DNA of 64,000 nucleotides, from the NCBI GenBank assembly GCA_016712355.1, contig JADJRF010000005.1, positions 2,449,562 through 2,513,561 on the forward strand. Reading direction: 5' to 3'. The DNA is from Vampirovibrionales bacterium (GTDB lineage Bacteria; Cyanobacteriota; Vampirovibrionia; Vampirovibrionales; Vampirovibrionaceae). A program made the translations under genes and the position numbers. Positions 2,908 through 64,000 of this stretch are shown one piece after another (positions within the stretch are counted from its first letter, which is position 1; each line of letters begins with the position of its first letter). The notes under the pieces are model-generated. The model searched no databases, had not been told where the DNA came from, and worked only from the letters and a program-made list of their open reading frames with translations.

Positions 2908-4555
2908 ATCGGGATAAATCGCCCAGATGGGCGTCCATGGCCGTCGTGCGGTTCGAAAATCCGTCTACGACGTAAGGCCCGCGCAGACGATCGCGGCGCT
3001 GATACAGCGTGGCCACGGCGTCTGAATAAATCCGCGCCCAGCCGGGGAGACGGTCCAGCCTCTTGCGCAATTGCGCCGCCCCAGCGGGGATGACGATCAG
3101 GGTCGCGCCCGATCGCAGGGCGGGCCGCAGGTCATACGGCGGCATATAGAATGCCAGGTACGCCTGCATCTGGCGATCGTCGTAAACAGCCTCGTAACGC
3201 CCGTCTATCGACACGCGAACCGCTGGATACAGGCGCCAGAAGAAATATTGCCCCCATCCGAAAGTCGTCCACAGGTCGCCTTCAATTTTATTTTGCTGAA
3301 GAAAACGAACCAGCCCCTGAGGGTAAACCAGTTGGGTCTCCGCCTCTTGAGACGCCGCGCCCGTCGTCCCCAGAACCCGCACATAGAGAGGCGCTCCCTG
3401 CATATGCAATACGCCTGACACGAGCAGTAAAATCCCTGTAGAAAGGATGAGTTTAACCGCGTACGGCGCCTCTTGCCTTAAAGCGACCTGATTTTCCGGC
3501 GAAACGTTCGAACGGGTCCAAGCGAACGCGGGCGGCGTTTTTAAGCGCCACGCCAGCATTATCGCCGCAATAATGAAAAACGGAGCCAATTTAAAATGAA
3601 GCGTCCCGGCCACTGCCAATGCCACTAACATGAGTTCGACCACAGGAAACTGACGTGGGCGCGTCAGCGCCGAATAAATAGCCACGCCAGCAAAAAACAG
3701 GGCGACGAGCAGGTAACTCACGCCAAATCCCACGCTGTGGGTCAAAACATGACCCCATTCCATAATATAAGGTCGGGGCATTCCCCATGCGCCGAAAAGC
3801 TCGCGATGCAGATCCAGCCCATAGGGATTCAGCCATGTCGCCAATCCGCACGCGATTGTTGTGAGCAGCAGACGATTTGCCTGCCGCCAGTTTCTTTGCA
3901 AAGCCGACTTTAAATAGAATGCGCCTAACAGGCCAAATCCCATAATAAAACCGGCATGGAGATTCACCCAGAATGCCATCGCCAGCGGCAAGAACGCCAG
4001 CGTATTTTTCCAGGAATTCCCCTTGACGCGATCAAAGGCCAGTAAGCGATTCAGAAACAGCGTAAAGAAGAAGAAAGAAAAAAGATGGCAGCGAAACGTA
4101 CAGCCCAAGCCATTCCAGAGAACAAATGCAGTCAGTGGCGCCGAATACTTCAGAAAATCAGGAATAAAAGCGGACGGATTCGCATGACAGGCGCGCTCCT
4201 GCCGAAACGTCTGTAACATCATGGCGATGCAGGCAAAAACAAGGGTTAATTTAAAACAGAATATGCTCAAACTCCCCCAGTGTTTAAACAGATAAAAAAG
4301 CAGGAAGCCGCTGCCCCATTCATGATCGATCCACAGGCGCCCGCCAGCAACGCCGAATGAAAAAACATCGCGATAGGGAAAATAGCCGGGGTTTTGGTCT
4401 ATTAGGGCGCCGATGGCCATTTTTCCCCATAAATCCAGATCGGCGACATTTTGAACGTTCAGGCACAGCAATAAGACGCCAGCAAAGGACAAGCCATTCA
4501 GAACAGCCGGCAACTTTTGCCGCCACCGGGAATGCGCCAGATAAGAAACCATCAT
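2843..4555 (-). CDS. Large polytopic integral membrane protein (570 aa), possibly a glycosyltransferase-fold (GT39/ArnT/YfhO-like) membrane enzyme
   Basis: More than 10 predicted hydrophobic helices and a long uninterrupted ORF. Family assignment is inference only. The 3' end overlaps the convergent thyX by ~65 nt. Confidence 0.55.
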   Translation of the reverse strand: MMVSYLAHSRWRQKLPAVLNGLSFAGVLLLCLNVQNVADLDLWGKMAIGALIDQNPGYFPYRDVFSFGVAGGRLWIDHEWGSGFLLFYLFKHWGSLSIFCFKLTLVFACIAMMLQTFRQERACHANPSAFIPDFLKYSAPLTAFVLWNGLGCTFRCHLFSFFFFTLFLNRLLAFDRVKGNSWKNTLAFLPLAMAFWVNLHAGFIMGFGLLGAFYLKSALQRNWRQANRLLLTTIACGLATWLNPYGLDLHRELFGAWGMPRPYIMEWGHVLTHSVGFGVSYLLVALFFAGVAIYSALTRPRQFPVVELMLVALAVAGTLHFKLAPFFIIAAIMLAWRLKTPPAFAWTRSNVSPENQVALRQEAPYAVKLILSTGILLLVSGVLHMQGAPLYVRVLGTTGAASQEAETQLVYPQGLVRFLQQNKIEGDLWTTFGWGQYFFWRLYPAVRVSIDGRYEAVYDDRQMQAYLAFYMPPYDLRPALRSGATLIVIPAGAAQLRKRLDRLPGWARIYSDAVATLYQRRDRLRGPYVVDGFSNRTTAMDAHLGDLSRFRLTGARRPADPEATRARPDA

Positions 4556-4842
4556 CGCCCCGTCATTTCCGGACTATTTTGGAGGCCAAACGCCGTATTC
4601 CCATTATGGAGCGTCTTTTCTGCTTCCACGTCATCTGGCTATGGGATTCTGATCAGGCAAGTTTGCCATGCATGCGTTTTCACCCCTTCGGGTGATAAAA
4701 CGCATGCGCGCGCTACGATAAGATGACATTATCGGCAACCCCCCTCGGCCAGAAATCGCCTTTTCTCCTGAGAAGGATCTGAGCGTCGGACCGCTTGCCC
4801 CCACGAAGAATGAGATATAGAGCAACGAGTGAGGACTTCCTG

Positions 4843-5040
4843 ATGAAAATGATGCTTCGCAAATCCAGAAAAGGTCAATCGCTGGCCGAATACGGTTTGA
4901 TTCTGGCCCTGATCGCCATCGTGTGTATTGCGGCCCTGTCGTTCCTGGGAAGCCAAATCGGCAACTCCCTGAATGACGTCGGCAACAAACTGTTTACCGC
5001 CATTAGCAGCTCTAAACCCGGCTCGCCGCCCGCATCATAG
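4843..5040 (+). CDS. flp: Flp/Fap family type IVb prepilin
   Basis: MKMMLRKSRKG|QSLAEYGLILALIAIVCIAAL matches the Flp prepilin processing motif (G/xxxxEY followed by a hydrophobic stretch). ATG at 4843 follows gtgaggac. Confidence 0.7.
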   Translation: MKMMLRKSRKGQSLAEYGLILALIAIVCIAALSFLGSQIGNSLNDVGNKLFTAISSSKPGSPPAS

Positions 5041-5078
5041 AAGCTTATAAAATCAAGGTTTTTTCCAAACATTCTCCA

Positions 5079-5122
5079 CCAGCGCCGAACTAAATATTTT
5101 TAGGTCGGCGCTGGAGTTTTTT
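5079..5122 (+). terminator. Intrinsic terminator after flp
   Basis: 10-bp stem ccagcgccga / tcggcgctgg with an AT-rich loop, followed by agtttttt. Confidence 0.6.
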
Positions 5123-5140
5123 AAAAGAGAAAATTAATTT

Positions 5141-5389
5141 ATGCAAAATTATCGAAAAGCATCAAAAAAATTTCCCCCTCAAAAAAAGGGGGATAAATCT
5201 TGTAGAGGCTTGACGGGTAACACCCTCGCCGAGCTAGCGTGCATTACGGTTTTTATTGCTATTTTTTGCGTTGCCGCCCTCACTTTTCTTTCAAATCAAT
5301 TTTCTTCCATGTGCGATTACTTGGGAAACTTTTTTGCAAATACGATTAAAAATACTTCACCCGGATCTCCCGGCAGCGGAACAAGTTAA
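5141..5389 (+). CDS. Divergent second Flp-like prepilin in a locally AT-rich segment
   Basis: GLTG|NTLAELACITVFIAIFCVAALTFL resembles the Flp G/xxxxE(Y/L) hydrophobic core. The C-terminal SPGSPGSG echoes the KPGSPPAS tail of the first flp. Local GC is far below the chromosomal average. Confidence 0.5.
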   Translation: MQNYRKASKKFPPQKKGDKSCRGLTGNTLAELACITVFIAIFCVAALTFLSNQFSSMCDYLGNFFANTIKNTSPGSPGSGTS

Positions 5390-5423
5390 CGCCAACGCTT
5401 TACCACAGCTGAAATAAAATCCT

Positions 5424-6074
5424 TCAATATACCGCCGGAAACAGGCGGTATCGAACTTTTTGGAAATATTGCCTGTACTCTTCAGAAGACGCGCTCAAGA
5501 TACGCTCTTCCTCAAGAAGTCGCAGAATTTGGCACGTGATTAAAGTAAAAAACAAAACAATATTGAACCATGACAATTGAAGCAACACCAAGGAGAAGAA
5601 CCAGACCAGCTCAAAAGCATACAGAGGATGGCGAATCCAGCGATACAACCCTTGCGTTTTCACCTGTCGGCATGCCGCAACAATCCCAAACCCCTTGCCT
5701 AAACACCCGATAGCGACCAGTGAGCCCCCTGCGCCCACCACCCAGAGCGCGGCGGCAAGAATGCCCAGCCCAGGGGCAGGATGATGCGGGGCCGGTTGTA
5801 ACAATAAAGGCAGCAGACTGGTGGCAAACGCAATAATCCGATGCGTAATACGGCCTGACTCCGCTTGCGCCTCTTTGCGCGTAACAAATAATATCAACAT
5901 AAACATGTAAAATGCGAGAATAGCGATCGAACTAAAATCGCCGCGCAATACGCCCAAACCATAGGTATAAACCGCGTACGCCGTTAGACAGAACGCAAAC
6001 AGGGTAAAAAGCGCATTCAGGGGAATTCTTGATTTTCGCACGATGGGCACAATTGCAGGGGACGGCTCTGTCAT
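5424..6074 (-). CDS. Isoprenylcysteine carboxyl methyltransferase (ICMT)/phospholipid methyltransferase family membrane protein
   Basis: C-terminal GLYRWIRHPLYAFELVWFF is the ICMT-family signature. ORF 5424..6464 is trimmed to the internal ATG (MTEPSP...) because the upstream part overlaps purM on the other strand. Confidence 0.7.
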   Translation of the reverse strand: MTEPSPAIVPIVRKSRIPLNALFTLFAFCLTAYAVYTYGLGVLRGDFSSIAILAFYMFMLILFVTRKEAQAESGRITHRIIAFATSLLPLLLQPAPHHPAPGLGILAAALWVVGAGGSLVAIGCLGKGFGIVAACRQVKTQGLYRWIRHPLYAFELVWFFSLVLLQLSWFNIVLFFTLITCQILRLLEEERILSASSEEYRQYFQKVRYRLFPAVY

Positions 6075-53768: not shown

Positions 53769-54530
53769 ATGAACACCGATAGCCGAATCACAGACTGCGA
53801 GGCGCTTAAGGCGGAAATCGACAGCTATCGTCCGTTGGATGAATACACCCTCAACCAGCTCAAGGCCTACTACCGGGTAGGGTTGACGTATGCCAGCAAC
53901 GCCCTGGAAGGCAACACCCTGACCGAGACTGAAACCAAGGTGGTACTGGAGGACGGCATTACCATTGGCGGTAAGCCCATGAAGGATCACCTGGAAGCCA
54001 TTGGTCACGCCAAAGCGTATGACCTACTGTATGACCTGATTCAAAATCCGAGCGTGACCGAGGCCGATTTACTGGCCCTTCATCGTTTGGTCGTGGAAGG
54101 CATTGACGGCACCAAACCAGGGCAATATCGAAGCAAGCCCGTCATCATTACCGGAACCGCCTACGTCCCCCCTCAACCTGCCGACGTTCCAGGACAGATG
54201 CAGACATTCATTGAGGACAAGCTTCCCAACTGGATCAAGGCCGAACATCCCATTCATACGGCGGCGCTGGCCCACCTGGAATTGGTGACCATCCACCCGT
54301 TTCTGGATGGCAATGGCCGGACGGCCCGGCTGCTCATGAATCTTCTGTTGCTGAAGACAGGCTACCCCATCACGATTATCCCGCCGGTGTTGCGGTCGGA
54401 TTACATGGCTTGCCTACGGTCATTTCAGGAAAGCCAGGACAACACGCCGTTTCTGAACTTCATTTCCAACGTGGTAGTTGAGTCGTCCAAGGATATGCTC
54501 CGGCTACTCAAGCACCTCCAACCCCGTTAA
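53769..54530 (+). CDS. fic: Fic-family protein (class II; N-terminal inhibitory motif present)
   Basis: Fic active-site motif HPFLDGNGRTARLL (HxFx(D/E)GNGRxxR) and N-terminal SNALEGN matching the (S/T)xxxE(G/N) auto-inhibitory helix. First gene of the low-GC island. Confidence 0.85.
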   Translation: MNTDSRITDCEALKAEIDSYRPLDEYTLNQLKAYYRVGLTYASNALEGNTLTETETKVVLEDGITIGGKPMKDHLEAIGHAKAYDLLYDLIQNPSVTEADLLALHRLVVEGIDGTKPGQYRSKPVIITGTAYVPPQPADVPGQMQTFIEDKLPNWIKAEHPIHTAALAHLELVTIHPFLDGNGRTARLLMNLLLLKTGYPITIIPPVLRSDYMACLRSFQESQDNTPFLNFISNVVVESSKDMLRLLKHLQPR

Positions 54531-54974
54531 ACGTCCATCCAGCGGTCATGTTTGGGCTTGTCGCCAAAGACGTTGCTCATGAAGTTTTCCAAGGCTTCCT
54601 TGAGACGACGTTCCTTTTCATCGCTCATCGCCTTGTCCACATCGCGGGCCATCGCTTCCACCCAGTACCCGACGGCGATTGCCAAGGCGTCCAGACGGTC
54701 ATCCTGGGCCAAGGCTCCCCGTTCTCGGGTAATACGGCTCATCTGGTAGAAAAGCTGGTACTTCAACGCCTGCTCTGGCGGTAGGTGCTGGGTCGATTTG
54801 TAGTCCCGGTCAATGAGCTTTCGATTCACAATCAAGCGGTGCTGGTTCATCACGGGTTCGAGGGTATCAATAATCCGCTTCTCTTTCTGGATACTGTGCT
54901 TCACCTCCTCGGTGGTCACCGGGTAAATGCGGGTTAGGAAAGGCTTGAGGAGTTGCTCGAACATCCCATCCCCG
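54527..54974 (-). pseudogene. 3' gene fragment truncated by IS insertion, possibly the C-terminal nuclease region of a phage terminase large subunit
   Basis: Native sequence begins exactly at the IS end (54975); the first 24 codons of ORF 54527..55048 are IS-derived. ...AQDDRLDALAIAVGYW resembles the terminal HDDxxDAL metal-binding motif of terminase nuclease domains (weak inference). Confidence 0.35.
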
Positions 54975-55038
54975 TGGTCAACCCCCAAAATATGATCCAG
55001 TTGTAAGTCAGTGGTTTGGTGTTGATGGGGTTCAGTAT

Positions 55039-55872
55039 TCAGGCGCATGGAGCGGAGCGGAATGGGACTGAATACTGAAGTCGCGCAGCCGGAGCTGGTG
55101 GCTTGTATCCCAGTGAGCTGTGCGGCCTGACGTGATTGTAATGCTCACGCCAGTCTTCAATAACCGTCTGTGCTTCTTTGAGCGTATAGAACAACTCCCC
55201 ATTCAGCAATTCATCGCGTAACCTTCCATTAAAGCTCTCGTTGTAACCGTTTTCCCAAGGGCTGCCCGGCTCAATGTAGGCCGTCTTTACCCGCAGTTGA
55301 TACAGCCACTCCTTGAGTGTGGCAGCGGTAAATTCGCTGCCGTTGTCTGAACGGATATAATCCGGCAATCCTTCTCTCAGAAACAAGTCACTCAGAACAT
55401 CCAGCACATCATCACTGTTCAGACGATAATCCACACGGATGGCAAGGCATTTGCGGGTAAACTCGTCAATCACGGTGAGCATCCGTATCTTCTTGCCACA
55501 GGCCAGCCGGTCTGCCACAAAGTCATAGCTCCACACATGGCCCGGCCAGCAGGGACGAAGCCGAATGCAGGAGCCATCATTCAAATACAGACGGCTCCGC
55601 TTCTTCTGGCGTTTAGGAACCTTCAGACCTTCCTCGCGCCAAATACGTTCCACTCGCTTGTGGTTAACCCGCCAGCCCTCAGCACGAAGCAAGGCGGTGA
55701 TGCGCTTGTAACCGTAGCGACCATACCGACGGGCCAAACGGATAATATCACCCCGAAGCGCCTCTTCATCATCGGGCTTTCGTTTGAGATAGCGCTGAAC
55801 GGAACGGCAAACGCCGAGCGCATGACACGCCCGGCGCTCCGATATACCATAGCGTTGCTGGCTTTTTACCAC
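55039..55872 (-). CDS. IS3-family transposase OrfB (DDE integrase core)
   Basis: rve-domain blocks HVWSYDFV...[11 protein letters not shown]...[11 protein letters not shown]...[16 protein letters not shown]. Confidence 0.85.
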
Positions 55873-55895
55873 ACAACGACGCTTCCGCTCAGCGC

Positions 55896-56174
55896 TTAAA
55901 AGTTTCCCGCTGCCGCGTCCCTGAGGATCTGCTTGTCCAGAGTTAAATCGGCTACCACACGCTTTAACCGCGCATTCTCAGCCTCCAGCTCTTTAAGCCG
56001 CTTTGCCTGAGAGATACCCATGCCCCCATACTCCTTGCGCCATTTGTAATAGGTCGCATCCGAAACACCCAGCTCCCGGCATATCTCTTCTACCGTCTTC
56101 CCCTGACCCGATAATACCTCCGCCTGGCGCAGCTTGCGAATAATCTGCTCCGGCCTGTGACGCAGTTTGCTCAT
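55896..56174 (-). CDS. IS3-family transposase OrfA (HTH, leucine zipper)
   Basis: [20 protein letters not shown]...TYYKWRKEY...[25 protein letters not shown]. Confidence 0.85.
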
Positions 56175-56254
56175 ATCTCCCTCCTATTTGTCGGTCTCTT
56201 CTTTTTACCTCAACTACGAGATAATTTCTGGACCGAATTATAGGGGGCGGGTCA

Positions 56255-56883
56255 CCTTTTCGTTTCACCCATGTATAGAGGTTGACAGTCTTTTCCGGGG
56301 CTTCATCGGTCTTACCCAAAACGAGTTGACGAATCTTCTCCGGTAATGCCGCCGGGGCAACGGTTTCATGAATCACGATTTCCAGTACATGACCCATCGG
56401 GTCGCGCACGACCACGTAACGGTCCAAGTGGAAGACCCGCATCCCGTCGGGCTGGGACATATCCATCAGGACATTCCCGGCCACAAGCAAGTGCTTCAGG
56501 ATTTCAAAGACGGCCACGCGATCCGCTGAGACCTCAATCTCGGTCATCACGGCCTGTTCGACTCGGGAGAGCGCCGTCTCCAGTTCGGTTTTCAATCCGG
56601 GATCCGTCTGACCCTGGATAAACTCGTCCACCCGTAGCCGAAAGAAGGGACTGTTTGGCGGCAACAAAGCCAACAATAGTTTGGAAGCTAAATTGTTGAC
56701 CCCTCTGGCTCCTACTCCTTGATAGGGTGTTTCCAGCTTCGTTGTGGAATTATGTCCGTTGGGTGGGAGCAGGCTAGGGATGGTATATTTCGAGGCTTCC
56801 CGCGCCCGGTCCAGGTAGACAAAGCGGCGGGTTTCCAGCTCCCGATACCGAGCTTCGGCGGTTCCGACCACAGCGCTATCCAT
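56255..56883 (-). pseudogene. T7-like phage portal (head-to-tail connector, gp8-like) N-terminal fragment, interrupted by IS copy 1
   Basis: YTIPSLLPPNGHNSTTKLETPYQGVGARGVNNLASKLLLALLPPNSPFFRLRVDEF aligns to the T7 gp8 N-terminus (YTIPSLFPKD...DYQTPWQAVGARGLNNLASKLMLALFP...). The reading frame runs straight into IS sequence at 56254. Confidence 0.7.
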
Positions 56884-57281
56884 ACTAATTGGGCACGTTC
56901 AGCCCCGAGCCTGGACCCGGAATCAATAAATCAATCCGAAGAGACCGGGTGCCACTCCGACGAGCGGACGCCAAATTGCTATCCGTCTTCCTTTTACGGG
57001 CTTGTTCATCTTCTTGAGATAAAGGCGCGGTCGGTGTGGGCTCTGGAGGGGGCGGGACCGGCGGGAGCGGTGTGGGTTGTACGGCAGGAATCTTTGGCAT
57101 TTTAGGTTTGGATCCGCACATCTACACATTCTCCAAAAGGTTTTCTTGCTGACGTTTTGATTGTTCGATGAGAAAGCGCACGACCCGACGCTCTCCGACG
57201 GTGACCCGCCCCCTATAATTCGGTCCAGAAATTATCTCGTAGTTGAGGTAAAAAGAAGAGACCGACAAATAGGAGGGAGAT

Positions 57282-57560
57282 ATGAGCAAACTGCGTCACA
57301 GGCCGGAGCAGATTATTCGCAAGCTGCGCCAGGCGGAGGTATTATCGGGTCAGGGGAAGACGGTAGAAGAGATATGCCGGGAGCTGGGTGTTTCGGATGC
57401 GACCTATTACAAATGGCGCAAGGAGTATGGGGGCATGGGTATCTCTCAGGCAAAGCGGCTTAAAGAGCTGGAGGCTGAGAATGCGCGGTTAAAGCGTGTG
57501 GTAGCCGATTTAACTCTGGACAAGCAGATCCTCAGGGACGCGGCAGCGGGAAACTTTTAA
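57282..57560 (+). CDS. IS3-family transposase OrfA
   Basis: Identical in amino-acid sequence to 55896..56174. Confidence 0.85.
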
Positions 57561-57583
57561 GCGCTGAGCGGAAGCGTCGTTGT

Positions 57584-58417
57584 GTGGTAAAAAGCCAGCA
57601 ACGCTATGGTATATCGGAGCGCCGGGCGTGTCATGCGCTCGGCGTTTGCCGTTCCGTTCAGCGCTATCTCAAACGAAAGCCCGATGATGAAGAGGCGCTT
57701 CGGGGTGATATTATCCGTTTGGCCCGTCGGTATGGTCGCTACGGTTACAAGCGCATCACCGCCTTGCTTCGTGCTGAGGGCTGGCGGGTTAACCACAAGC
57801 GAGTGGAACGTATTTGGCGCGAGGAAGGTCTGAAGGTTCCTAAACGCCAGAAGAAGCGGAGCCGTCTGTATTTGAATGATGGCTCCTGCATTCGGCTTCG
57901 TCCCTGCTGGCCGGGCCATGTGTGGAGCTATGACTTTGTGGCAGACCGGCTGGCCTGTGGCAAGAAGATACGGATGCTCACCGTGATTGACGAGTTTACC
58001 CGCAAATGCCTTGCCATCCGTGTGGATTATCGTCTGAACAGTGATGATGTGCTGGATGTTCTGAGTGACTTGTTTCTGAGAGAAGGATTGCCGGATTATA
58101 TCCGTTCAGACAACGGCAGCGAATTTACCGCTGCCACACTCAAGGAGTGGCTGTATCAACTGCGGGTAAAGACGGCCTACATTGAGCCGGGCAGCCCTTG
58201 GGAAAACGGTTACAACGAGAGCTTTAATGGAAGGTTACGCGATGAATTGCTGAATGGGGAGTTGTTCTATACGCTCAAAGAAGCACAGACGGTTATTGAA
58301 GACTGGCGTGAGCATTACAATCACGTCAGGCCGCACAGCTCACTGGGATACAAGCCACCAGCTCCGGCTGCGCGACTTCAGTATTCAGTCCCATTCCGCT
58401 CCGCTCCATGCGCCTGA
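57584..58417 (+). CDS. IS3-family transposase OrfB
   Basis: Identical to 55039..55872. The frame is open upstream into the orfA end (-1 frame), consistent with frameshift fusion. Confidence 0.85.
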
Positions 58418-58493
58418 ATACTGAACCCCATCAACACCAAACCACTGACTTACAACTGGATCATATTTTGGGGGTTGACCAAACCTTAACATA

Positions 58494-58994
58494 TTAACCT
58501 TTGAGATTGCCTAGCTTTAATTCGGGATGCCGGTAGACCCAGGGATAGAGGGGTTGATCCTTCTTACACCAGAATCCAAGACATTGGCTCTTTGCTTGTT
58601 CCTCTTCAGTTTCAAACTCAAATGAATACTTCAGATACGCATAAGAATAGCCATTAGCCACGAGGGCTTGGTTAATATCCTTATCTTCAGCGTAAATATA
58701 CCCAAGCAACCTTTTGTATTTGTCTCGGCCCGTTATCTGTACGAAAATTTGTTTTTCATTTAGCTGGTCTTGTAGATAGGTAGTGGCTCTTTGTCCCCAG
58801 ACTCCTTGAGATTCTTCAGGGGCATCAATCCCTTCCAATCTCAATTTTTCCCGTTTGCCATGATATATGAGTTCTATAGTATCTCCATCGACAACCCTCA
58901 GTAGGGTAACCGACTCTCTTGGCAGTCCCTGAGCATAACAAAATGATGCCATAGCCAAGTAGAGGGCTATGACCAGCCCCTTTAGTTTCCTCAT
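58494..58994 (-). CDS. Secreted thermonuclease (staphylococcal nuclease/SNase-like)
   Basis: Signal peptide, then VVDGDTIEL...LRLEGIDAPE...DKYKRLLGYIYAEDKDINQALVANGYS matching SNase Ca-binding and catalytic blocks. Confidence 0.85.
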   Translation of the reverse strand: MRKLKGLVIALYLAMASFCYAQGLPRESVTLLRVVDGDTIELIYHGKREKLRLEGIDAPEESQGVWGQRATTYLQDQLNEKQIFVQITGRDKYKRLLGYIYAEDKDINQALVANGYSYAYLKYSFEFETEEEQAKSQCLGFWCKKDQPLYPWVYRHPELKLGNLKG

Positions 58995-59008
58995 TTATAT
59001 TCTCCTAG

Positions 59009-59251
59009 TTAGACTTTACTTTTCCTAAAACCTTGTTTTTGTGCCTCTTGTTCACTTTTAAAGCATCGCCGATTGTCTTTGCCTTTATTCCTAACCAACA
59101 TCCGATCATAGTATTTCTGCCCTGGCGCGTGATAAATCATCGAAGCTGTATTACCGACTACGGGGCAGTCATTTGGACTGTAGTCCTTGGCAAAAGCCAC
59201 GCCCGAAAAGAGTAAAGACATTGTTACCAGCGTAGAGATTAAAAGTTGCAT
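59009..59251 (-). CDS. Small secreted protein with a Cys/His Ada-like (Ada_Zn_binding-like) motif
   Basis: Signal peptide, then DCPVVGNTASMIYHAPGQKYY...DNRRCFKSEQEAQKQGFRKSK. The same motif recurs in ORF 59875..60270. The pattern resembles the Ada N-terminal metal-binding domain (CxxxC...N-R-x-F-x-S-x-x-E-A-x-x-x-G-x-R). Confidence 0.45.
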   Translation of the reverse strand: MQLLISTLVTMSLLFSGVAFAKDYSPNDCPVVGNTASMIYHAPGQKYYDRMLVRNKGKDNRRCFKSEQEAQKQGFRKSKV

Positions 59252-59343
59252 CTGCGATTACCTTTACGAGATAATATACAAGTTTCTATTTATTAAACTT
59301 CAGGAACTTACATTGATAAAAGTTCACATAATGAGATAATATA

Positions 59344-59356
59344 TCACAAATTGTGA
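59344..59356. promoter_or_regulatory. Perfect palindrome TCACAA-A-TTGTGA immediately upstream of the XRE regulator gene (candidate operator)
   Basis: 6-bp arms are exact reverse complements. Flanked by two direct repeats GAGATAATATA (59268, 59333) in the divergent intergenic region. Confidence 0.3.
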
Positions 59357-59383
59357 CAATGCAAGTTTTGTGAAGGAGCGTAT

Positions 59384-59878
59384 ATGGGCAAGTACAGAAC
59401 AGCTTTCGGCGACTTATTGGACGATCTCCTTTATGAAAAGGGGATGAAGTCTCTTACGGAGTTTGGAGAACGTATTGGTGTAGCTAAAAATGCCTTGTCG
59501 CAATACTGCACAGGCGCACGGGAACCAGGGGATGAGATTCTGATCAGGATGGCTTTATTCCTGGACGTGGATTACATCACCTTGAAGAGAGCCGCCCTCT
59601 TAGATCGGTATCCGTTGTGGCAACTGATTACCATTGGGGTCTTTGACTCTTTCTTGACCAAAGAACAAGTAGGGGAACTCCAAAGCCTGATTGACAATGA
59701 GGATGATCTGGAAGAATTGTTGAAACAGCTTCACCGAGACTTAGATTTGCAGAAACAATACGTTTCCGTTGGATGGAAAGATTTTTTAGAATCGTTGAAG
59801 TCTGCGGGGTTTCTGCACAAACAGAAAACGAAACCTCCCCTGAGCAAGACCCATGAAAAGAGGGTTAATGCTCTATGA
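59384..59878 (+). CDS. XRE-family HTH transcriptional regulator (first gene of island operon)
   Basis: HTH_3-like LTEFGERIGVAKNALSQYCTGAREPGDEIL. Confidence 0.65.
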   Translation: MGKYRTAFGDLLDDLLYEKGMKSLTEFGERIGVAKNALSQYCTGAREPGDEILIRMALFLDVDYITLKRAALLDRYPLWQLITIGVFDSFLTKEQVGELQSLIDNEDDLEELLKQLHRDLDLQKQYVSVGWKDFLESLKSAGFLHKQKTKPPLSKTHEKRVNAL

Positions 59879-60270
59879 CACAAGATACAGAAAAGGTTAT
59901 CCCCATCAGTCAGAGACAAGACAAGATGAGCAGATATGACCTGCTGAAAAGCCTTATGAGCACTAAAGAAATAACAACAAACGCCAGTAAAGCTCGTCGC
60001 TACGGCCTTTTTCTCACAATTCTTACCCTGTTAGTTATTGCTGGCCTGTATGGGCGTTCCCAACTTGGCTATAAACCTACCGCTATAGATGAGGCGCTGG
60101 GTGCAAAGCAGTGTCCAATCATCGGAAATGTCGATTCAAAGTTGTATCACACTCCTAAGGAACACCACTATCTTGAACTACTCCAAAGAAATAAAGCCCG
60201 CGAAAACAGAATCTGTTTTTCTCAAGAATGGGAAGCATGGCTAGCAGGCTATAAGAAGAGTAAATTTTGA
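59875..60270 (+). CDS. Membrane-anchored protein with C-terminal Ada-like Cys/His motif (paralog of 59009..59251)
   Basis: One TM (LFLTILTLLVIAGLYG), then QCPIIGNVDSKLYHTPKEHHY...ENRICFSQEWEAWLAGYKKSKF. Its start overlaps the upstream stop (ATGA). Confidence 0.45.
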   Translation: MTQDTEKVIPISQRQDKMSRYDLLKSLMSTKEITTNASKARRYGLFLTILTLLVIAGLYGRSQLGYKPTAIDEALGAKQCPIIGNVDSKLYHTPKEHHYLELLQRNKARENRICFSQEWEAWLAGYKKSKF

Positions 60271-60626
60271 AAGAAATGGTTTTAGCAATGAGCGATACGT
60301 CTTATAAAACATTTAAAAAGGTGCTGGGCATTATTTCTATTTTAATGCTGTTAGGTACTTTGGCAGATAATCCTTATAGCTACTATGTTTTGCTTCGCTG
60401 GGTTGTTTGCATTGCAGCCATTAGTATAGCTCTTTCTTTTAAGGCATTAAATAAGGAAGGCTGGTTTATCACATTGCTAATTACTGCCTTCTTATTCAAT
60501 CCCCTGATCCCGGTTCACTTAAACAAGCAATTGTGGACAGTTCTGGATTTAGTAACTGCTGCTATCTTTTTGGTGTCTATTTTCAAACTTGAAAACAATA
60601 CCAAGAGGTTCCCAGCCAATGAGTGA
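60267..60626 (+). CDS. Small polytopic membrane protein, hypothetical
   Basis: 3-4 hydrophobic helices; start/stop overlaps with neighbours. Confidence 0.4.
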   Translation: MKEMVLAMSDTSYKTFKKVLGIISILMLLGTLADNPYSYYVLLRWVVCIAAISIALSFKALNKEGWFITLLITAFLFNPLIPVHLNKQLWTVLDLVTAAIFLVSIFKLENNTKRFPANE

Positions 60627-61284
60627 TCATTTAGATGTACTGAGGCAGATGCGACAAAGCCAGACTCAAGAGCTTGCTCTTGTAGAAGATATAGCACCTC
60701 AAAAGCAGTGCCCTTTCTGTGCAGAGAGTATTTTAATAGATGCGATAAAGTGCAAACATTGTGAGGAATGGCTTATCGATCAAAGTAATTCTGGCAAGAA
60801 GCTTTATAGCAACAAACAAAGTCTTATTTTCTTATTTTTACTATCCTTCCTTTCGATTGGTATATATGACCTGTACTGGTTCTATAAGAACTGGAGACAG
60901 CTAAAGTCTATTGGTTATAAAATTTCCCCTGGATTGAGACTATTAGGTCTTTTTGTTCCCTTTCTCAATCTCTACCTACTCGATAACTTTATTCGTGAGG
61001 TTAAAAAACTGGGAGACAGTGTTGGCAATAAGACCTACCCTTATCCCTTTTTGGTAGGGTTCTGCTATATATTCTCAAATATAGTTTCCCGCTATGTAAT
61101 CTTTCATTTTGGCTTCTGGGCTCCGGTTTACCTGCAAGGAAAACTTAACGCTTATTGGGATAAAACACAGCCGTCGCTCGAAACGAGAAAGTTTCCCACT
61201 GTCTGGGAATGGGTATTCTTAATAGTATTAGGACTATTCTGGCTTCTCTGTATTGTGGGTGCTCTAGTGGGAGGTAATAACTAA
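60619..61284 (+). CDS. Zinc-ribbon (CPxC...CxHC) plus DUF4234-like membrane domain protein
   Basis: N-terminal QCPFCAESILIDAIKCKHCEEWL zinc ribbon. A membrane domain with IGIYDLYWFYKNW resembles DUF4234. ATG at 60619 overlaps the upstream stop; an alternative start is 60589. Confidence 0.6.
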   Translation: MSDHLDVLRQMRQSQTQELALVEDIAPQKQCPFCAESILIDAIKCKHCEEWLIDQSNSGKKLYSNKQSLIFLFLLSFLSIGIYDLYWFYKNWRQLKSIGYKISPGLRLLGLFVPFLNLYLLDNFIREVKKLGDSVGNKTYPYPFLVGFCYIFSNIVSRYVIFHFGFWAPVYLQGKLNAYWDKTQPSLETRKFPTVWEWVFLIVLGLFWLLCIVGALVGGNN

Positions 61285-63329
61285 TGCCAAATACAGTCAA
61301 GCAAACGAAGCTTTGTCCTAATTGCAATAATGAAATATTGGCTGAAGCCATTAAGTGCAAACATTGTAAAAGTTTCATAGAACAATCTTTAGAAAAAGCG
61401 TCAAACATTTCTGAGTCTAATGTTGGGATAGAAATCCATAATACTCCTGTAAGGCATTCATTTGATTTAATTAATAACAATGCCTATAGGGTGTTAGGAC
61501 TTCCTGCTGATGCCTCTCAGGAATCGATTCATGAAGCTAATAGCTCTATTCGTAGAGTTCTAAAGATTGGGGTAAGCAAATCCTCTCCCTGGGATTTGGC
61601 TTGGATTGGCCCAATCAATAGGAGCGAGAAAGATTTACAGTCTGCTATAGGCAGGCTTATGAATCCAGTTCAACGTCTTCAGGAACGCTTATTTTGGTTT
61701 TCAAGTAATACGCCTCTACTTAATGAAGCAACCATAGAATCTCTATCGTCCGTCATTTCTGAGCTTGAAACAAAAGCCAATAGCCATGATCTTGCAGTGG
61801 TAAAGCTTGCCTACGCTAATTTGATTGATCCTGAACTCAAAAATATAAAACTTTGGATAGAAGCAATAACTCTTTGGGAAACAGTCATTTCTTCAGACGA
61901 CTATTGGGCCTCTTTGCTCGATATGGAAATGGACGGTGAATTTGAGCCTTTTGCCACCATAGAAGAGGTAGAGAACCTAAAACTGAATGTTTACAGGTTG
62001 GTCTGCTCAAAGCTATTAGCCCTAGCAAATGAGGGTATAGTTGCCAAGAATGAAGGGATTTGTAGGCAAGTTTTTAGCATTCTTAAAGATTCAAAAATAC
62101 CCAGAAATATTTTTTACGAATTTGAAACTCAAGCCTTTGGAAGTTTGGAAGATCAACTCACTGAATTATGTGAACAGATTCGGAATGATTCAAATAGTAT
62201 TCTTAACAAGCAGGATACCAATGCGCCAGATAATATCAAAGCCTGTACTACAGCCTTAAACCGATTTAATAATGAGGTTCGGCCTCTCTTAAGCAAATTG
62301 CTGAATGTAGCTGGTCAAAATACGGAACTTGCTAATCGTGTTAAAGAAGAAGCCGCCGGTTGTCTAAGGGGCATTGCTATAAACTTTACTTGGGCAGATG
62401 AGTTTATCCGTTCTAAAGAGTTGCTTGAACAGGCTATAACTATTGCTCCTAAAGATTCTTCCGTCTATCATCGACTGCTAGAGGACTCAGGAGATGTTGA
62501 AAAAACTTCTGAGAAGCAGAAGATATGGAAAGACTTAAAACCTATCAAGAGTGCTCCTGTCCTTCAAACCATTAACGCCTGCGGCTTCACTTTATATGGT
62601 TGTACTAATGTTGATCCTGAAACACAGTCTGGCTTGTCAACATATTACTTTGTAATTTTAGGTATTCCTATATTCCCCATTTGTCGATACAGAGTAATTT
62701 CAACAGGTGATAGGAGCTATAGATTTTTAGGAAAAGCCCCCTTAAGAAAGGGGGATAAGTGGCACCTAGGCATATCACTGTGCCTGATTCTTATTGCTTT
62801 TCTGTGGATTTCAGCTAGCTCATCAACAAGCTCATCGAATTATTCTTCAAACTACTCCTCTGCTCCTAGTGAAACAACAAACTATTCTTCTACTCCCAGT
62901 GAAACATACACAGATCCTGAATCCACTTCGACCTCCACAAATGAACCAGCGACTCAGGAAATTCAAACTCCTCCAGAGGGTATAATACCCACCAATCAAT
63001 TCAGCTCTACTTACAAAATCGACTTGAAAGCAAAGATAGATGCGGGTAGAGCCAAATTGGCCTCTCTGGAAGCCTCTTATAATCAATTAGCGGATGAGGT
63101 GCAGAGCATGAAGCTTGAACTTAATCAGAAACAAGCTGAAGTTGAAAAGCTTGAAACCCAAGCCAAGTATGGCATTGATGTTGAACAGTATGAATCTAAG
63201 AGACAAGCTTATAATCAGTTCGTTGAAAAGCATAATCAAACGCTTTCCAGGGCTAAAAAAGCTGAGCAAGAATACAATGCAGTTCTCGAAGAGGATCACA
63301 GGATGGTTCAGGAATATAATTCGCTATAA
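61284..63329 (+). CDS. Large multi-domain protein: N-terminal zinc ribbon, degenerate J-like helical domain (no HPD), central TM segments, S/T/N-Y-rich linker, C-terminal coiled coil
   Basis: LCPNCNNEILAEAIKCKHCKSFI is a paralog of the previous gene's ribbon. AYRVLGLPADASQESIHEANSSIRRVL is J-domain helix II/III-like but lacks HPD. TM stretches lie around residues 440-520. NYSS repeats are present. The last ~110 aa have heptad periodicity. Confidence 0.55.
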   Translation: MPNTVKQTKLCPNCNNEILAEAIKCKHCKSFIEQSLEKASNISESNVGIEIHNTPVRHSFDLINNNAYRVLGLPADASQESIHEANSSIRRVLKIGVSKSSPWDLAWIGPINRSEKDLQSAIGRLMNPVQRLQERLFWFSSNTPLLNEATIESLSSVISELETKANSHDLAVVKLAYANLIDPELKNIKLWIEAITLWETVISSDDYWASLLDMEMDGEFEPFATIEEVENLKLNVYRLVCSKLLALANEGIVAKNEGICRQVFSILKDSKIPRNIFYEFETQAFGSLEDQLTELCEQIRNDSNSILNKQDTNAPDNIKACTTALNRFNNEVRPLLSKLLNVAGQNTELANRVKEEAAGCLRGIAINFTWADEFIRSKELLEQAITIAPKDSSVYHRLLEDSGDVEKTSEKQKIWKDLKPIKSAPVLQTINACGFTLYGCTNVDPETQSGLSTYYFVILGIPIFPICRYRVISTGDRSYRFLGKAPLRKGDKWHLGISLCLILIAFLWISASSSTSSSNYSSNYSSAPSETTNYSSTPSETYTDPESTSTSTNEPATQEIQTPPEGIIPTNQFSSTYKIDLKAKIDAGRAKLASLEASYNQLADEVQSMKLELNQKQAEVEKLETQAKYGIDVEQYESKRQAYNQFVEKHNQTLSRAKKAEQEYNAVLEEDHRMVQEYNSL

Positions 63330-63334
63330 AGAGG

Positions 63335-63718
63335 TTGATAATGTCTTCAAAAGGAACAATCGAATGTTCTGTCGAACAGCTATCAGAGCTTTCGGTTGAG
63401 GCATGGCGTTTAGGCCAATGGCTCTCAAGGCTTGACTCACAAAGCTCTATTGGCAGGCATGTTCTTAGAAAGTATGAAAGGTTCTTCCAAGACCTTGGAA
63501 TTGAGGTTTTGGATATGACAGGAAAGACTTATGATCCTGGAATGGCCTTGGATATTATTGATTCTATTCAGGATGACACTCTTGAATCGGGTATTGAAGT
63601 TATAGACGAAACCATTGCTCCCATTGTGGTTTACCAAGAGCAGGTAATCAGGCATGGGCAGGTAGTCACTCGTAAAAGAGCAGAAGTTTTAGAGCAAGCG
63701 ACGGCTGAGGAGCAATAA
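63335..63718 (+). CDS. Short GrpE-like nucleotide-exchange-factor homolog (C-terminal four-helix/beta-wing region only)
   Basis: LGIEVLDMTGKTYDPGMALDIIDS...ESGIEVIDETIAPIVVYQEQVIRHGQVVTRK parallels the E. coli GrpE block [21 protein letters not shown]...[27 protein letters not shown]. Confidence 0.55.
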   Translation: MIMSSKGTIECSVEQLSELSVEAWRLGQWLSRLDSQSSIGRHVLRKYERFFQDLGIEVLDMTGKTYDPGMALDIIDSIQDDTLESGIEVIDETIAPIVVYQEQVIRHGQVVTRKRAEVLEQATAEEQ

Positions 63719-63721
63719 GGA

Positions 63722-64000
63722 ATGAACCAATTTATTAATTACGGCATCGATCTTGGCACAACCAATTCTTGTACCGCCTCCTGGGACGGTAACGATGTCC
63801 GAATCTATCAAAATAATGATTTGATGAATGTCACTCCTTCCGTTGTCAGAGTCCAAAAGAATAATCGGGTTCTTATTGGTAAACGTGCATACAACGCTAT
63901 TGTGGAGGATCCTGATAATGTGGTCTCTGAATTCAAACGCTGGATGGGACAGAAAGATAAAAAGTCTTTTTCGGCTTCTGGCCGAAGCATGTCTGCTGAA
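63722..64000 (+). CDS. Hsp70 (DnaK-like) family ATPase, 3'-truncated by the window end
   Basis: N-terminal Hsp70 signature YGIDLGTTNSCTA...VTPSVV...LIGKRAYNAI...KRWMGQ; RBS aagga 5 nt upstream. Confidence 0.8.
   Translation, partial: MNQFINYGIDLGTTNSCTASWDGNDVRIYQNNDLMNVTPSVVRVQKNNRVLIGKRAYNAIVEDPDNVVSEFKRWMGQKDKKSFSASGRSMSAE

Follow-up and report, generated by a model that had tools for sequence, protein, structure and literature searches.

The capacity of J-domain proteins to stimulate the ATPase of Hsp70 chaperones depends on an invariant HPD tripeptide located between helices II and III. Specialised versions of this machinery are found in bacteria and organelles. In Escherichia coli, HscC represents a specialised Hsp70 subfamily encoded beside the membrane-anchored J-proteins DjlB and DjlC, both of which have canonical HPD J-domains; we know of no dedicated GrpE-like nucleotide-exchange factor and of no AAA or kinase partner in this system. 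The motor of the mitochondrial presequence translocase (PAM) is formed by mtHsp70, Tim44, Pam18, the J-like Pam16 and the exchange factor Mge1/GrpE. Chaperones have also been connected with prokaryotic conflict. GTPase-centric conflict systems, which are defined by GAP1-N2 or DO-type GTPases, some of them with tubulin, and are found chiefly in Actinobacteria and Firmicutes, recruit HSP70, GrpE and DnaJ-fused FNIII/TPR proteins (Kaur, Burroughs, Iyer and Aravind 2020, PMC7159879). CoCoNuT Type III and NxD-McrB systems embed divergent Hsp70-like CnuD/CnuCD domains whose Walker-like motifs are degenerate; these domains are either fused to McrB/McrC homologues or paired with them, and RNA binding has been proposed for them (Bell et al. 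2024, PMC11090510). Moreover, the host DnaJ is reported to take part in bNACHT25 sensing, a precedent for chaperones in immunity (PMC12169576). Here we describe a chaperone operon at the end of a 64,000-nt stretch of DNA (hereafter, the window) from a Vampirovibrionales bacterium (contig JADJRF010000005.1, positions 2,449,562 to 2,513,561), which starts at position 59384 and whose core encodes a J-like membrane anchor, a GrpE-like protein (mini-GrpE), an Hsp70-like protein and an AAA ATPase.

The conserved core of this cassette consists of the J-like, GrpE-like and Hsp70-like proteins plus either an AAA ATPase or a kinase, and the order of the first three genes is kept across at least eight phyla. 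It is a conserved, mobile and self-contained Hsp70 module that is anchored in the membrane, has its own J-like partner and a partner with the fold of a nucleotide-exchange factor, and includes an ATPase or kinase component that can be exchanged. Its recurrence across many phyla, within defence islands and on mobile elements, makes it probable that the cassette is a conflict system based on chaperones and not described before. With a confidence that we would call evenly balanced, we read this widespread and unnamed cassette as an inner-membrane-anchored non-canonical Hsp70 machine, for which the likeliest role is to defend against phages or mobile elements of other kinds. No published description of a cassette joining an Hsp70, a GrpE-like protein, a J-like protein and an AAA ATPase or kinase was found in a literature search whose coverage did not extend to subscription journals, and in RefSeq the components are labelled as hypothetical protein, Hsp70 family protein or ATP-binding protein.

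The original prediction, made from the letters of the window, had proposed an operon of seven coupled genes. All seven open reading frames are present on the + strand, with stops and starts that overlap or nearly abut, but the operon does not end there, since an eighth gene lies past the window end. A public contig (L038), 100% identical to window positions 58452-64000, runs 3.7 kb further, completes the Hsp70-like gene (837 amino acids), adds a coupled gene for a 521-residue AAA ATPase and is then followed by a convergent gene. The resulting layout is as follows:

59384-59878, + strand: gene 1, XRE-type helix-turn-helix (HTH) regulator, 164 residues; lineage-specific accessory
59875-60270, + strand: gene 2, bitopic transmembrane protein of 131 residues, 'sunset'/Ada-like, with an ATGA overlap with gene 1; accessory
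60267-60626, + strand: gene 3, DUF6804 protein, 119 residues, 4-nt overlap with gene 2; recurrent accessory
60619 (or 60589)-61284, + strand: gene 4, zinc-ribbon (ZnR)/DUF4234-like protein, 221 (or 231) residues, 8-nt overlap; accessory
61284-63329, + strand: gene 5, J-like membrane anchor of 681 residues, 1-nt overlap with gene 4; core
63341-63718 (63335 if the start is TTG), + strand: gene 6, mini-GrpE, 125 (127) residues, after a gap of 5-11 nt; core
63722-64000 (window end), + strand: gene 7, first 93 codons of the 837-residue Hsp70-like protein, after a 3-nt gap; core
L038 5271-7784, beyond the window end: rest of the Hsp70-like gene
L038 7787-9352, beyond the window end: gene 8, AAA ATPase of 521 residues

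An exact-sequence look-up of mini-GrpE returned the annotated 125-residue form (P0121), recorded from a Vampirovibrionales metagenome-assembled genome, through which L038 was reached, and no match for the 127-residue form with the TTG start. The arrangement is not a chance pattern of open reading frames, because the identical contig continues the operon and the same order recurs in 33 species-representative genomes, retrieved by searching one genome per species with one strict peptide pattern taken from the conserved β module of the anchor, as well as in many metagenome contigs.

Regarding the Hsp70-like protein, the 93 residues inside the window match PF00012 at 1.7e-17 (63.3 bits, cut-off 20.6), the orthologue of a related locus (L001) reaches 263.7 bits with the same model, and the full protein matches DnaK at 2.4e-60. 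Its catalytic motifs (GIDLGTTNS, K72, QEP(E), DLGGGTLD and LVGGPTQIP) are all intact, in agreement with the Hsp70-like ATPase that had been proposed. The family profile aligns with E. coli DnaK over the nucleotide-binding domain (NBD) and the β part of the substrate-binding domain (SBD-β, ~476-600), with an insert of ~100 residues (375-470) at the place where the DVLLLD linker should be, and the protein ends in a helical tail of ~230 residues. An NBD 35-40% identical to that of DnaK speaks for an ordinary dnaK-grpE-dnaJ heat-shock locus, an explanation to which we assign a negligible probability: the protein scores 277.8 bits with the DnaK equivalog models (NCBIfam TIGR02350 / NF001413), which require 822.55, and 230.7 with the HscA equivalog (TIGR01991), which requires 708.55, both matches being confined to NBD residues 8-372; there is no Pfam match to GrpE or DnaJ and no HPD. 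The location in a low-GC island and the patchy, mobilome-borne distribution, plasmids included, also rule out the housekeeping locus, as the original prediction had maintained.

The protein encoded immediately upstream is best described as a miniature GrpE. In its predicted model, two helices of ~20 residues are followed by a β domain, in agreement with the C-terminal fold of GrpE, where helices of the four-helix bundle precede a compact β domain, the part of GrpE in contact with the Hsp70 NBD. A fold search was the only route that succeeded: neither Pfam (PF01025) nor NCBIfam gave a GrpE match at E ≤ 1, and a profile search of PDB sequences found no GrpE. A direct comparison with E. coli GrpE gave a local hhalign match to residues 124-165 only (E 0.006, probability 6%). 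The long, paired N-terminal helix of GrpE, responsible for asymmetric dimerisation and acting as a thermosensor, is absent from the model. The short GrpE-like protein that had been announced is consequently backed by its fold and not by sequence models, and we presume that it serves as the nucleotide-exchange factor of the cognate Hsp70. As a marker, the GrpE-like protein gathers 1,786 clusters at 50% identity.

The third core component, the 681-residue anchor, belongs to a family with 162 detectable homologues that no Pfam domain covers. In an AlphaFold2 model (predicted local distance difference test, pLDDT, of 84), a zinc ribbon, a disordered linker, a four-helix J-like domain and a TPR-like α-solenoid are followed by a four-stranded juxtamembrane β module, one transmembrane helix, a disordered linker of 57 residues rich in serine and threonine and a coiled-coil hairpin. 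The main parts, all on the + strand, are:

61305-61373: CPxC...CKHC zinc ribbon, residues 8-30, with weak zinc-ribbon Pfam matches and two β-hairpin strands in the AlphaFold2 model
61464-61691: J-like domain without HPD, residues 61-136, in which KIG closes helix II and a loop of ~20 residues comes next
61713-62528: TPR-like α-solenoid, residues 144-415, AlphaFold2 helices with pLDDT >90
62541-62738: juxtamembrane β module, residues 420-485 (SAPxLxTxNGxGFxLYG...IPIFPIxRYRV...FLGKxPL), the most conserved block of the family
62748-62819: transmembrane helix, the only one predicted, residues 489-512, from the AlphaFold2 model
62997-63323: C-terminal coiled-coil hairpin, residues 572-680, from the AlphaFold2 model, with a conserved D.YN..V..YN motif

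The presence of a J-like domain is supported by a similarity that is weak but specific. A profile of anchor residues 60-142 against the PDB placed DnaJ J-domains at the top (E 7.6e-4), with J-domain proteins making up most of the 25 matches; the hhalign comparison with the J-domain of E. coli DnaJ gave an E of 1.4e-5 (probability 80%), and the predicted helices fit the J-domain pattern of helices I-IV. The Pfam DnaJ model (PF00226) does not match either the 681-residue protein or its L001 orthologue at E ≤ 1, and a Foldseek search with the full-length model returned TPR proteins as best matches, all with E >1e-3, and did not pick out the J-like domain. No HPD occurs within 80 residues of the J-like start motif in any of 73 homologues, where the position is occupied by (K/L)(I/L)G and a loop of ~15-20 residues. 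The suspected J-like region lacking HPD was therefore borne out by profiles and homologues alike.

Many homologues miss the N-terminal zinc ribbon, and the majority of the family's invariant columns fall in the β module (P425, G434, Y455, P462, P465, R468, Y469, R470 and F481). The solenoid is presumed to be a scaffold for the binding of clients or partners. Lysines and arginines precede the transmembrane helix, and serine, threonine, glutamate and aspartate follow it, a distribution that suggests an N-in/C-out topology under the positive-inside reading. In those anchors that end after the transmembrane helix, the YN motif recurs in separate transmembrane or peptidoglycan-binding partners (hhalign E 5e-4 to 0.15 over 13-19 columns), one of which carries PG_binding_1 at 3.8e-16. 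Both the motif common to these partners of the second architecture described below and the charge bias around the helix suggest that the coiled coil is extracytoplasmic, probably periplasmic. The linker and the coiled coil of the original prediction were thus recovered in the model, but with one transmembrane helix instead of several.

The eighth gene encodes a protein with a single AAA domain of the classic clade (residues ~260-500), whose best PDB matches are Cdc48/p97 D2 domains (3e-90); its L001 orthologue matches PF00004 at 8e-35. Walker A (GPPGCGKT), Walker B (ILFIDE), an aromatic pore loop (PYI) and an RRTGRLD region are recognised. The protein reaches 177.6 bits with the Cdc48 subfamily model (TIGR01243), which requires 802.65, and it has one AAA domain instead of the tandem D1 and D2. 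No family matched the N-terminal ~260 residues of the L001 orthologue. As to whether this N-domain might be a pseudokinase, an orthologous cassette carries a bona fide Pkinase fused at the corresponding position, and variants devoid of the AAA protein have a kinase as a separate gene. The direct similarity to Pkinase is weak (hhalign E 0.002 for the N-lobe and 0.0086 for the full, colinear alignment, with 0.54 for a reversed control), and the best kinase match in a PDB profile search is also weak (E 0.92). Among defence models, the AAA protein matches only generic AAA models of PADLOC, IetA (1e-30) and TRIP13, and scores 107 bits with the IteA_antiphage equivalog, which requires 510.

This fourth component is exchangeable. 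A Cdc48-D2-like AAA protein occupies the position in the window's operon; in other cassettes its place is taken by a kinase fused to the AAA protein or by a separate PD-T4-6-like kinase, which may or may not be accompanied by a ClpB-like ATPase. In locus L041 (9167-18023), a predicted active Ser/Thr kinase (Pkinase) is fused to an AAA ATPase and accompanied by an FHA-domain protein and an A24 prepilin peptidase, with an Ada_Zn_binding protein upstream and a 335-residue protein in the GrpE-like position, a composition that hints at phospho-signalling inside the system. The separate kinases of other cassettes match the PADLOC PD-T4-6 models at 1e-57. Altogether, three architectures can be distinguished:

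Type 1 (this window): J-like anchor with a coiled coil that is probably periplasmic, GrpE-like, Hsp70, AAA; Melainabacteria, Acidobacteria, Alpha- and Deltaproteobacteria, Elusimicrobia, Polyangiaceae
Type 2: GrpE-like, Hsp70, AAA, separate transmembrane or peptidoglycan-binding protein, J-like; Pseudomonas, Cupriavidus, Verminephrobacter, Leptothrix, Polaromonas, Aeromonas, Shewanella, Vibrio, E. coli
Type 3: Ser/Thr kinase, J-like anchor, GrpE-like, Hsp70, without Cdc48-like AAA; Planctomycetes, Verrucomicrobia, Smithella and others

The gene order of type 1 occurs in Gammaproteobacteria too, the J-like protein of type 2 mostly stops just past the transmembrane helix, and some type 3 cassettes have a ClpB-like ATPase nearby. 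In two metagenomic relatives the C-terminal part of a canonical DnaK is fused to the N-terminus of the anchor. One of them (P0008, L048 2-2722) carries SBD-β and lid, is truncated by the contig end and is followed in L048 by the GrpE-like, Hsp70-like and AAA genes of the cassette; the other (P0010) has duplicated DnaK lid segments. These could be real fusions to a 'second Hsp70' or the outcome of recombination with the host dnaK. The existence of fusions between a DnaK SBD/lid and the J-like anchor, and between Pkinase and AAA, supports functional links among the parts of the cassette. Conservation of the neighbourhood in other genomes, which the original prediction had placed among its checks, is widespread.

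Some individual copies are worth describing. The E. coli HeN100 cassette (L049, NZ_CP044443.1 4115537-4122320; proteins WP_076487106, WP_076487107, WP_076487108, WP_133301085 and WP_133301086) has a 580-residue protein of the anchor family that keeps the J-like and helical parts and carries a soluble, β-rich C-terminal domain in place of the β module and transmembrane helix; a separate transmembrane protein of 228 residues bears the YN motif, presumably on its periplasmic side. Two type 2 cassettes (L045 12046-15853, from Aeromonas pKAM471_1, and L027 10630-12853) show 5-6 further co-directional small genes after the J-like gene, among them those for an RDD-family membrane protein and a T2SS-M-like protein, which may be extra membrane components.

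The genomic contexts of the cassette are those of mobile and defence-related DNA. On the Polaromonas conjugative plasmid pPNAP01, it lies between zorA and brxD plus helicases. In a CP4-like integrative island of E. coli, it is found beside RADAR rdrB, a dptF remnant, an integrase, an antirestriction gene and CbtA/YeeU. At other loci the neighbours are BrxC/D and a DEAD helicase; McrBC, HsdM and conjugation genes; MmeI and an integrase; NmeDI and a DUF4011 helicase; and a Bil-type ThiF/BilD cluster. On an Aeromonas IncP plasmid, the cassette directly follows TnsD and TnsE of a Tn7-like element, and plasmid-borne copies occur in Aeromonas, Vibrio and Shewanella. When 128 flanking open reading frames from 24 genomes were surveyed without bias, protein kinases and ClpB-like ATPases proved to be the commonest families, and transposases, resolvases and reverse transcriptases turned up as well. 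Within a species the cassette is rare (1-2 of 5,426 complete E. coli genomes), and no genome of the phage collection searched encodes the anchor protein. NCBIfam (June 2026), which holds named anti-phage families, contains no models for the cassette core.

Such locations raise the question of whether the cassette serves the mobile element itself, either as a membrane translocation or extraction motor, in the manner of mtHsp70-Tim44-Pam16/18-Mge1 or of Cdc48-driven endoplasmic-reticulum-associated degradation, or as an exclusion or addiction module for plasmids, integrative elements and Tn7-like transposons. A membrane-tethered J-like protein devoid of HPD, an Hsp70 and a GrpE-type exchange factor constitute the parts list of the PAM motor, a Cdc48-like AAA protein is encoded beside a membrane adaptor, and copies travel on plasmids, within the cargo of Tn7-like elements, next to conjugation genes and inside integrative islands. 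We nevertheless regard this explanation as quite improbable: no channel or secretion component is conserved with the core and the neighbours vary by locus, the anchor has one transmembrane helix only, and the cassette travels on unrelated kinds of elements as cargo does, instead of belonging to the backbone of one.

The main rival of a defence role is a mobile proteostasis or envelope-stress module, which would extract, refold or remove damaged proteins of the membrane or facing the periplasm and would confer stress tolerance instead of immunity. All core parts are homologues of chaperones or unfoldases with intact ATPase motifs, the interchange of Cdc48-like and ClpB-like partners mirrors the logic of the DnaK-ClpB bi-chaperone, the membrane anchor and the peptidoglycan-binding partners fit such a role, and no classical toxic effector is present. 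Mobile elements also carry stress-tolerance cargo, and transmissible heat-resistance or protein-quality-control islands are known to confer stress tolerance. The neighbours, however, are repeatedly Zorya, BREX, RADAR, McrBC, restriction-modification and Bil genes, and not genes for small heat-shock proteins or of FtsH or DegP type; a PD-T4-6-like Ser/Thr kinase as the alternative fourth part is hard to explain by stress tolerance, and both the very patchy distribution and the J-like domain lacking HPD argue for a specialised client over general folding. We therefore consider the proteostasis module unlikely, yet the strongest of the competing explanations.

Returning to defence, a working scheme can be proposed. 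The J-like domain of the anchor would recruit the dedicated Hsp70 to the membrane and trigger it, mini-GrpE would reset and recycle it, and the Hsp70 would either pass clients to the AAA unfoldase or kinase or hold this effector in check. Infection might be perceived through the extracytoplasmic coiled coil or peptidoglycan-binding module, which would report perturbations of the envelope, or through abundant phage proteins able to titrate the Hsp70. The released effector would then unfold or phosphorylate phage or host proteins, so that infection is blocked or aborted. Both this function and its mechanism are inferences; the gene context gives strong support to the conflict or defence-type role put forward by the original prediction.

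Several observations weigh against a defence role or temper it. The flank survey also yielded ordinary metabolic genes, one context (L042) has no defence gene nearby, and the association with defence is a qualitative list of contexts, not an enrichment corrected for background. The Hsp70-like, GrpE-like and J-like proteins have no match in PADLOC (PADLOC-DB v2.0.0), and the core contains no recognisable classical effector, be it a nuclease, an NADase or a pore-former. A J-like domain without HPD may not stimulate the ATPase at all. The topology, and hence any periplasmic sensing, draws on one AlphaFold2 model, a charge bias and a motif of 13-19 columns, and the sensing and effector steps of the scheme are speculation.

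If the scheme were correct, the cassette would represent a new class of immune system, a proposal that we advance tentatively and hold somewhat short of evenly balanced. In this class a membrane-anchored Hsp70 cycle, made of the HPD-less J-like anchor, mini-GrpE and a linker-less Hsp70, would gate an exchangeable effector and would rely on chaperone titration or envelope-coupled sensing, as a prokaryotic counterpart of the membrane-tethered Hsp70 motors and the Hsp70-Cdc48 extraction machinery of eukaryotes. Three kinds of effector would come into question: an unfoldase similar to Cdc48 whose N-domain would derive from a kinase, a fusion of kinase and AAA, or a kinase of PD-T4-6 type, alone or together with ClpB. 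All folds of the cassette are already known, as corresponds to an Hsp70 system.

Four genes of the window's operon precede the core. The XRE regulator matches HTH_3 (PF01381) at 2.4e-8, above the cut-off, and relatives carry in its place a divergent S24/LexA-like or M78-HTH regulator. The 131-residue transmembrane protein matches the 'sunset' model NF051437 at 5.6e-5 (23.1 bits, below the cut-off of 27); its C-terminal 'sunset'/Ada-Zn-binding-like domain is predicted to lie outside the cytoplasm, and in the related cassette of L041 the Ada_Zn_binding protein stands at the same position. The 119-residue product of gene 3 is a small polytopic membrane protein with a solid Pfam match to DUF6804 (PF20619, 3.1e-23), which also adjoins the cassette in the relatives L001/L005 and L011. 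The gene 4 protein matches DUF4234 at 5.6e-5 (23.6 bits, below the cut-off of 25.3) and Zn_ribbon_3 at 0.004, and has an orthologue upstream of the L001 cassette with 59% identity. The near-identical zinc ribbons that had been noticed in the gene 4 protein and the 681-residue anchor, CPFCAESILIDAIKCKHC and CPNCNNEILAEAIKCKHC, cross-match by tblastn with an E of 7e-7 and are paralogues. From the labels first given to these genes, the HTH assignment proved solid, but the Ada-like and DUF4234 ones stay below curated cut-offs. Since the four proteins recur in the nearest relatives only, or singly, they are local lineage-specific accessories or regulators.

These small membrane proteins call to mind a chaperone-controlled toxin module, in which the DUF6804, ZnR/DUF4234 or sunset-like transmembrane protein, or the anchor, would be toxic and the Hsp70 would restrain it. 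Several of them are translationally coupled upstream of the core in the window, the closest relatives also have DUF6804 and the ZnR protein, and chaperone-addicted toxin-antitoxin systems with a defence role have been reported (10.1101/2024.02.24.581848). The chances of this explanation appear slight to us, because the small membrane proteins are missing from most cassettes and therefore cannot be the essential effector; moreover, searches with domain models found no resemblance to a known toxin or antitoxin.

The DNA around the operon agrees with an acquired low-GC island close to a nuclease, a Fic protein and phage remnants, as shown by the drop in guanine-plus-cytosine (GC) content, the IS3 copies, the prophage debris and matches to PF00565 and PF02661. 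GC content is 0.405 in 58482-64000 and 0.599 in 1-54974, so that the block of ~40% GC that had been indicated is real (40.5%), but the host is a genome of ~60% GC and not of ~65%. The following features flank the operon:

53769-54530: Fic/DOC family protein (PF02661, 1.1e-23), with a large TPR protein on one side and prophage debris on the other
54975-56256 and 57200-58481, in inverted orientation: two copies of an IS3-family element, 1,282 nt each and 100% identical
58494-59251, - strand: secreted staphylococcal-nuclease homologue plus secreted protein of 80 residues, at the island edge
59313-59340 (L038 862-889), + strand: best sigma-70-like promoter match, TTGATA-16-TG-GATAAT, 44 nt upstream of gene 1; weak

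The island begins exactly where the second IS3-family copy ends. Between the copies lies a 943-nt piece of a T7-like portal (head-tail connector) gene, a T7-like terminase fragment (54527-55048) is cut by them, and together they may constitute an arrangement resembling a composite transposon or an inversion. The break of the public contig L038 falls exactly inside the IS3-family repeat. The nuclease homologue (166 residues, with signal peptide; PF00565, 2.5e-18) and the 80-residue protein (59009-59251, - strand), whose C-terminal domain is a clear paralogue of the 'sunset'/Ada-like domain of the 131-residue transmembrane protein, share the island and are not conserved with the cassette elsewhere. 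A scan for promoters and terminators found 23 promoter-like sites in the region against 19.2 in shuffled sequence, which is not above background. Upstream of the Fic region we find ordinary chromosomal genes (ATP synthase b, delta, alpha and gamma, and DapF), and a second GC dip (0.46-0.50 against ~0.60) at window positions 4001-6000 suggests another acquired segment.

As for its significance, the cassette is an Hsp70 derivative with defined parts, namely its own nucleotide-exchange factor, a J-like partner at odds with the HPD rule, an anchor in the membrane and an unfoldase or kinase as output, and its context points to immunity. If it indeed defends against phages, it would be the first Hsp70-centred anti-phage system, a tractable model both for Hsp70 action without the canonical linker and HPD allosteric switch and for the chaperone gating of kinases and unfoldases in bacteria, and it would bear on whether membrane-tethered motors made of Hsp70, J-like and GrpE proteins predate mitochondria. 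The natural copy of E. coli HeN100 and the plasmid copies of Aeromonas, Vibrio and Shewanella make the cassette directly testable.

How the cassette relates to described systems can now be examined part by part. With the DnaK-DnaJ-GrpE triad and ClpB it shares an Hsp70 with intact NBD and SBD-β, a GrpE-fold partner, a J-type partner and an AAA+ unfoldase encoded alongside, which in some variants is literally ClpB-like. In contrast to the triad, its Hsp70 has no DVLLLD linker, bears the ~100-residue insert and the ~230-residue helical tail and fails the DnaK and HscA cut-offs; its GrpE is a 125-residue stub without the long dimerisation helix; its J-like domain lacks HPD and sits on a membrane protein; its AAA protein is a single Cdc48-D2-like domain and not a two-ring Hsp100; and the locus is mobile and rare instead of housekeeping. 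HscC with DjlB/DjlC offers a similar case of a dedicated, non-housekeeping Hsp70 next to its own membrane-anchored J-type co-chaperone, to which the cassette adds the GrpE-like exchange factor and the AAA or kinase partner, and from which it differs in its HPD-less J-like domain. The PAM motor has in common with it a membrane-tethered Hsp70, an HPD-less J-like protein and a GrpE-type exchange factor, whereas the cassette has no conserved channel and no second, HPD-bearing J protein, and possesses an AAA or kinase partner; homology beyond the folds is not evident.

Among defence systems, IetAS resembles the cassette in that the AAA protein matches the IetA models, and differs in its protease partner IetS, which the cassette lacks. 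The type 3 kinases likewise resemble PD-T4-6/Stk2-type kinases. PD-T4-6, though, comprises a single gene; here the kinase forms one part of a cassette built around an Hsp70, and the window's version does not have it. CoCoNuT systems also place a divergent Hsp70 NBD/SBD unit in a predicted defence operon; the cassette, however, has intact ATPase motifs, dedicated partners of exchange-factor and J-like type and no McrBC. The GTPase-centric systems are defined by their GTPases, whereas in the cassette a membrane anchor and either an AAA ATPase or a kinase take the partner role; no GTPase was found among the eight operon genes, nor one conserved by the core in ~45 loci, in searches made without a dedicated GAP1-N2 profile. 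Because the defining partners differ, we reject both the CoCoNuT Hsp70-like units and the GTPase/tubulin/Hsp70 systems as the same system. Even so, the latter are predicted conflict systems that bring together an Hsp70, a GrpE and a J-domain/TPR protein, and as such they provide a precedent for chaperone-centred immunity.

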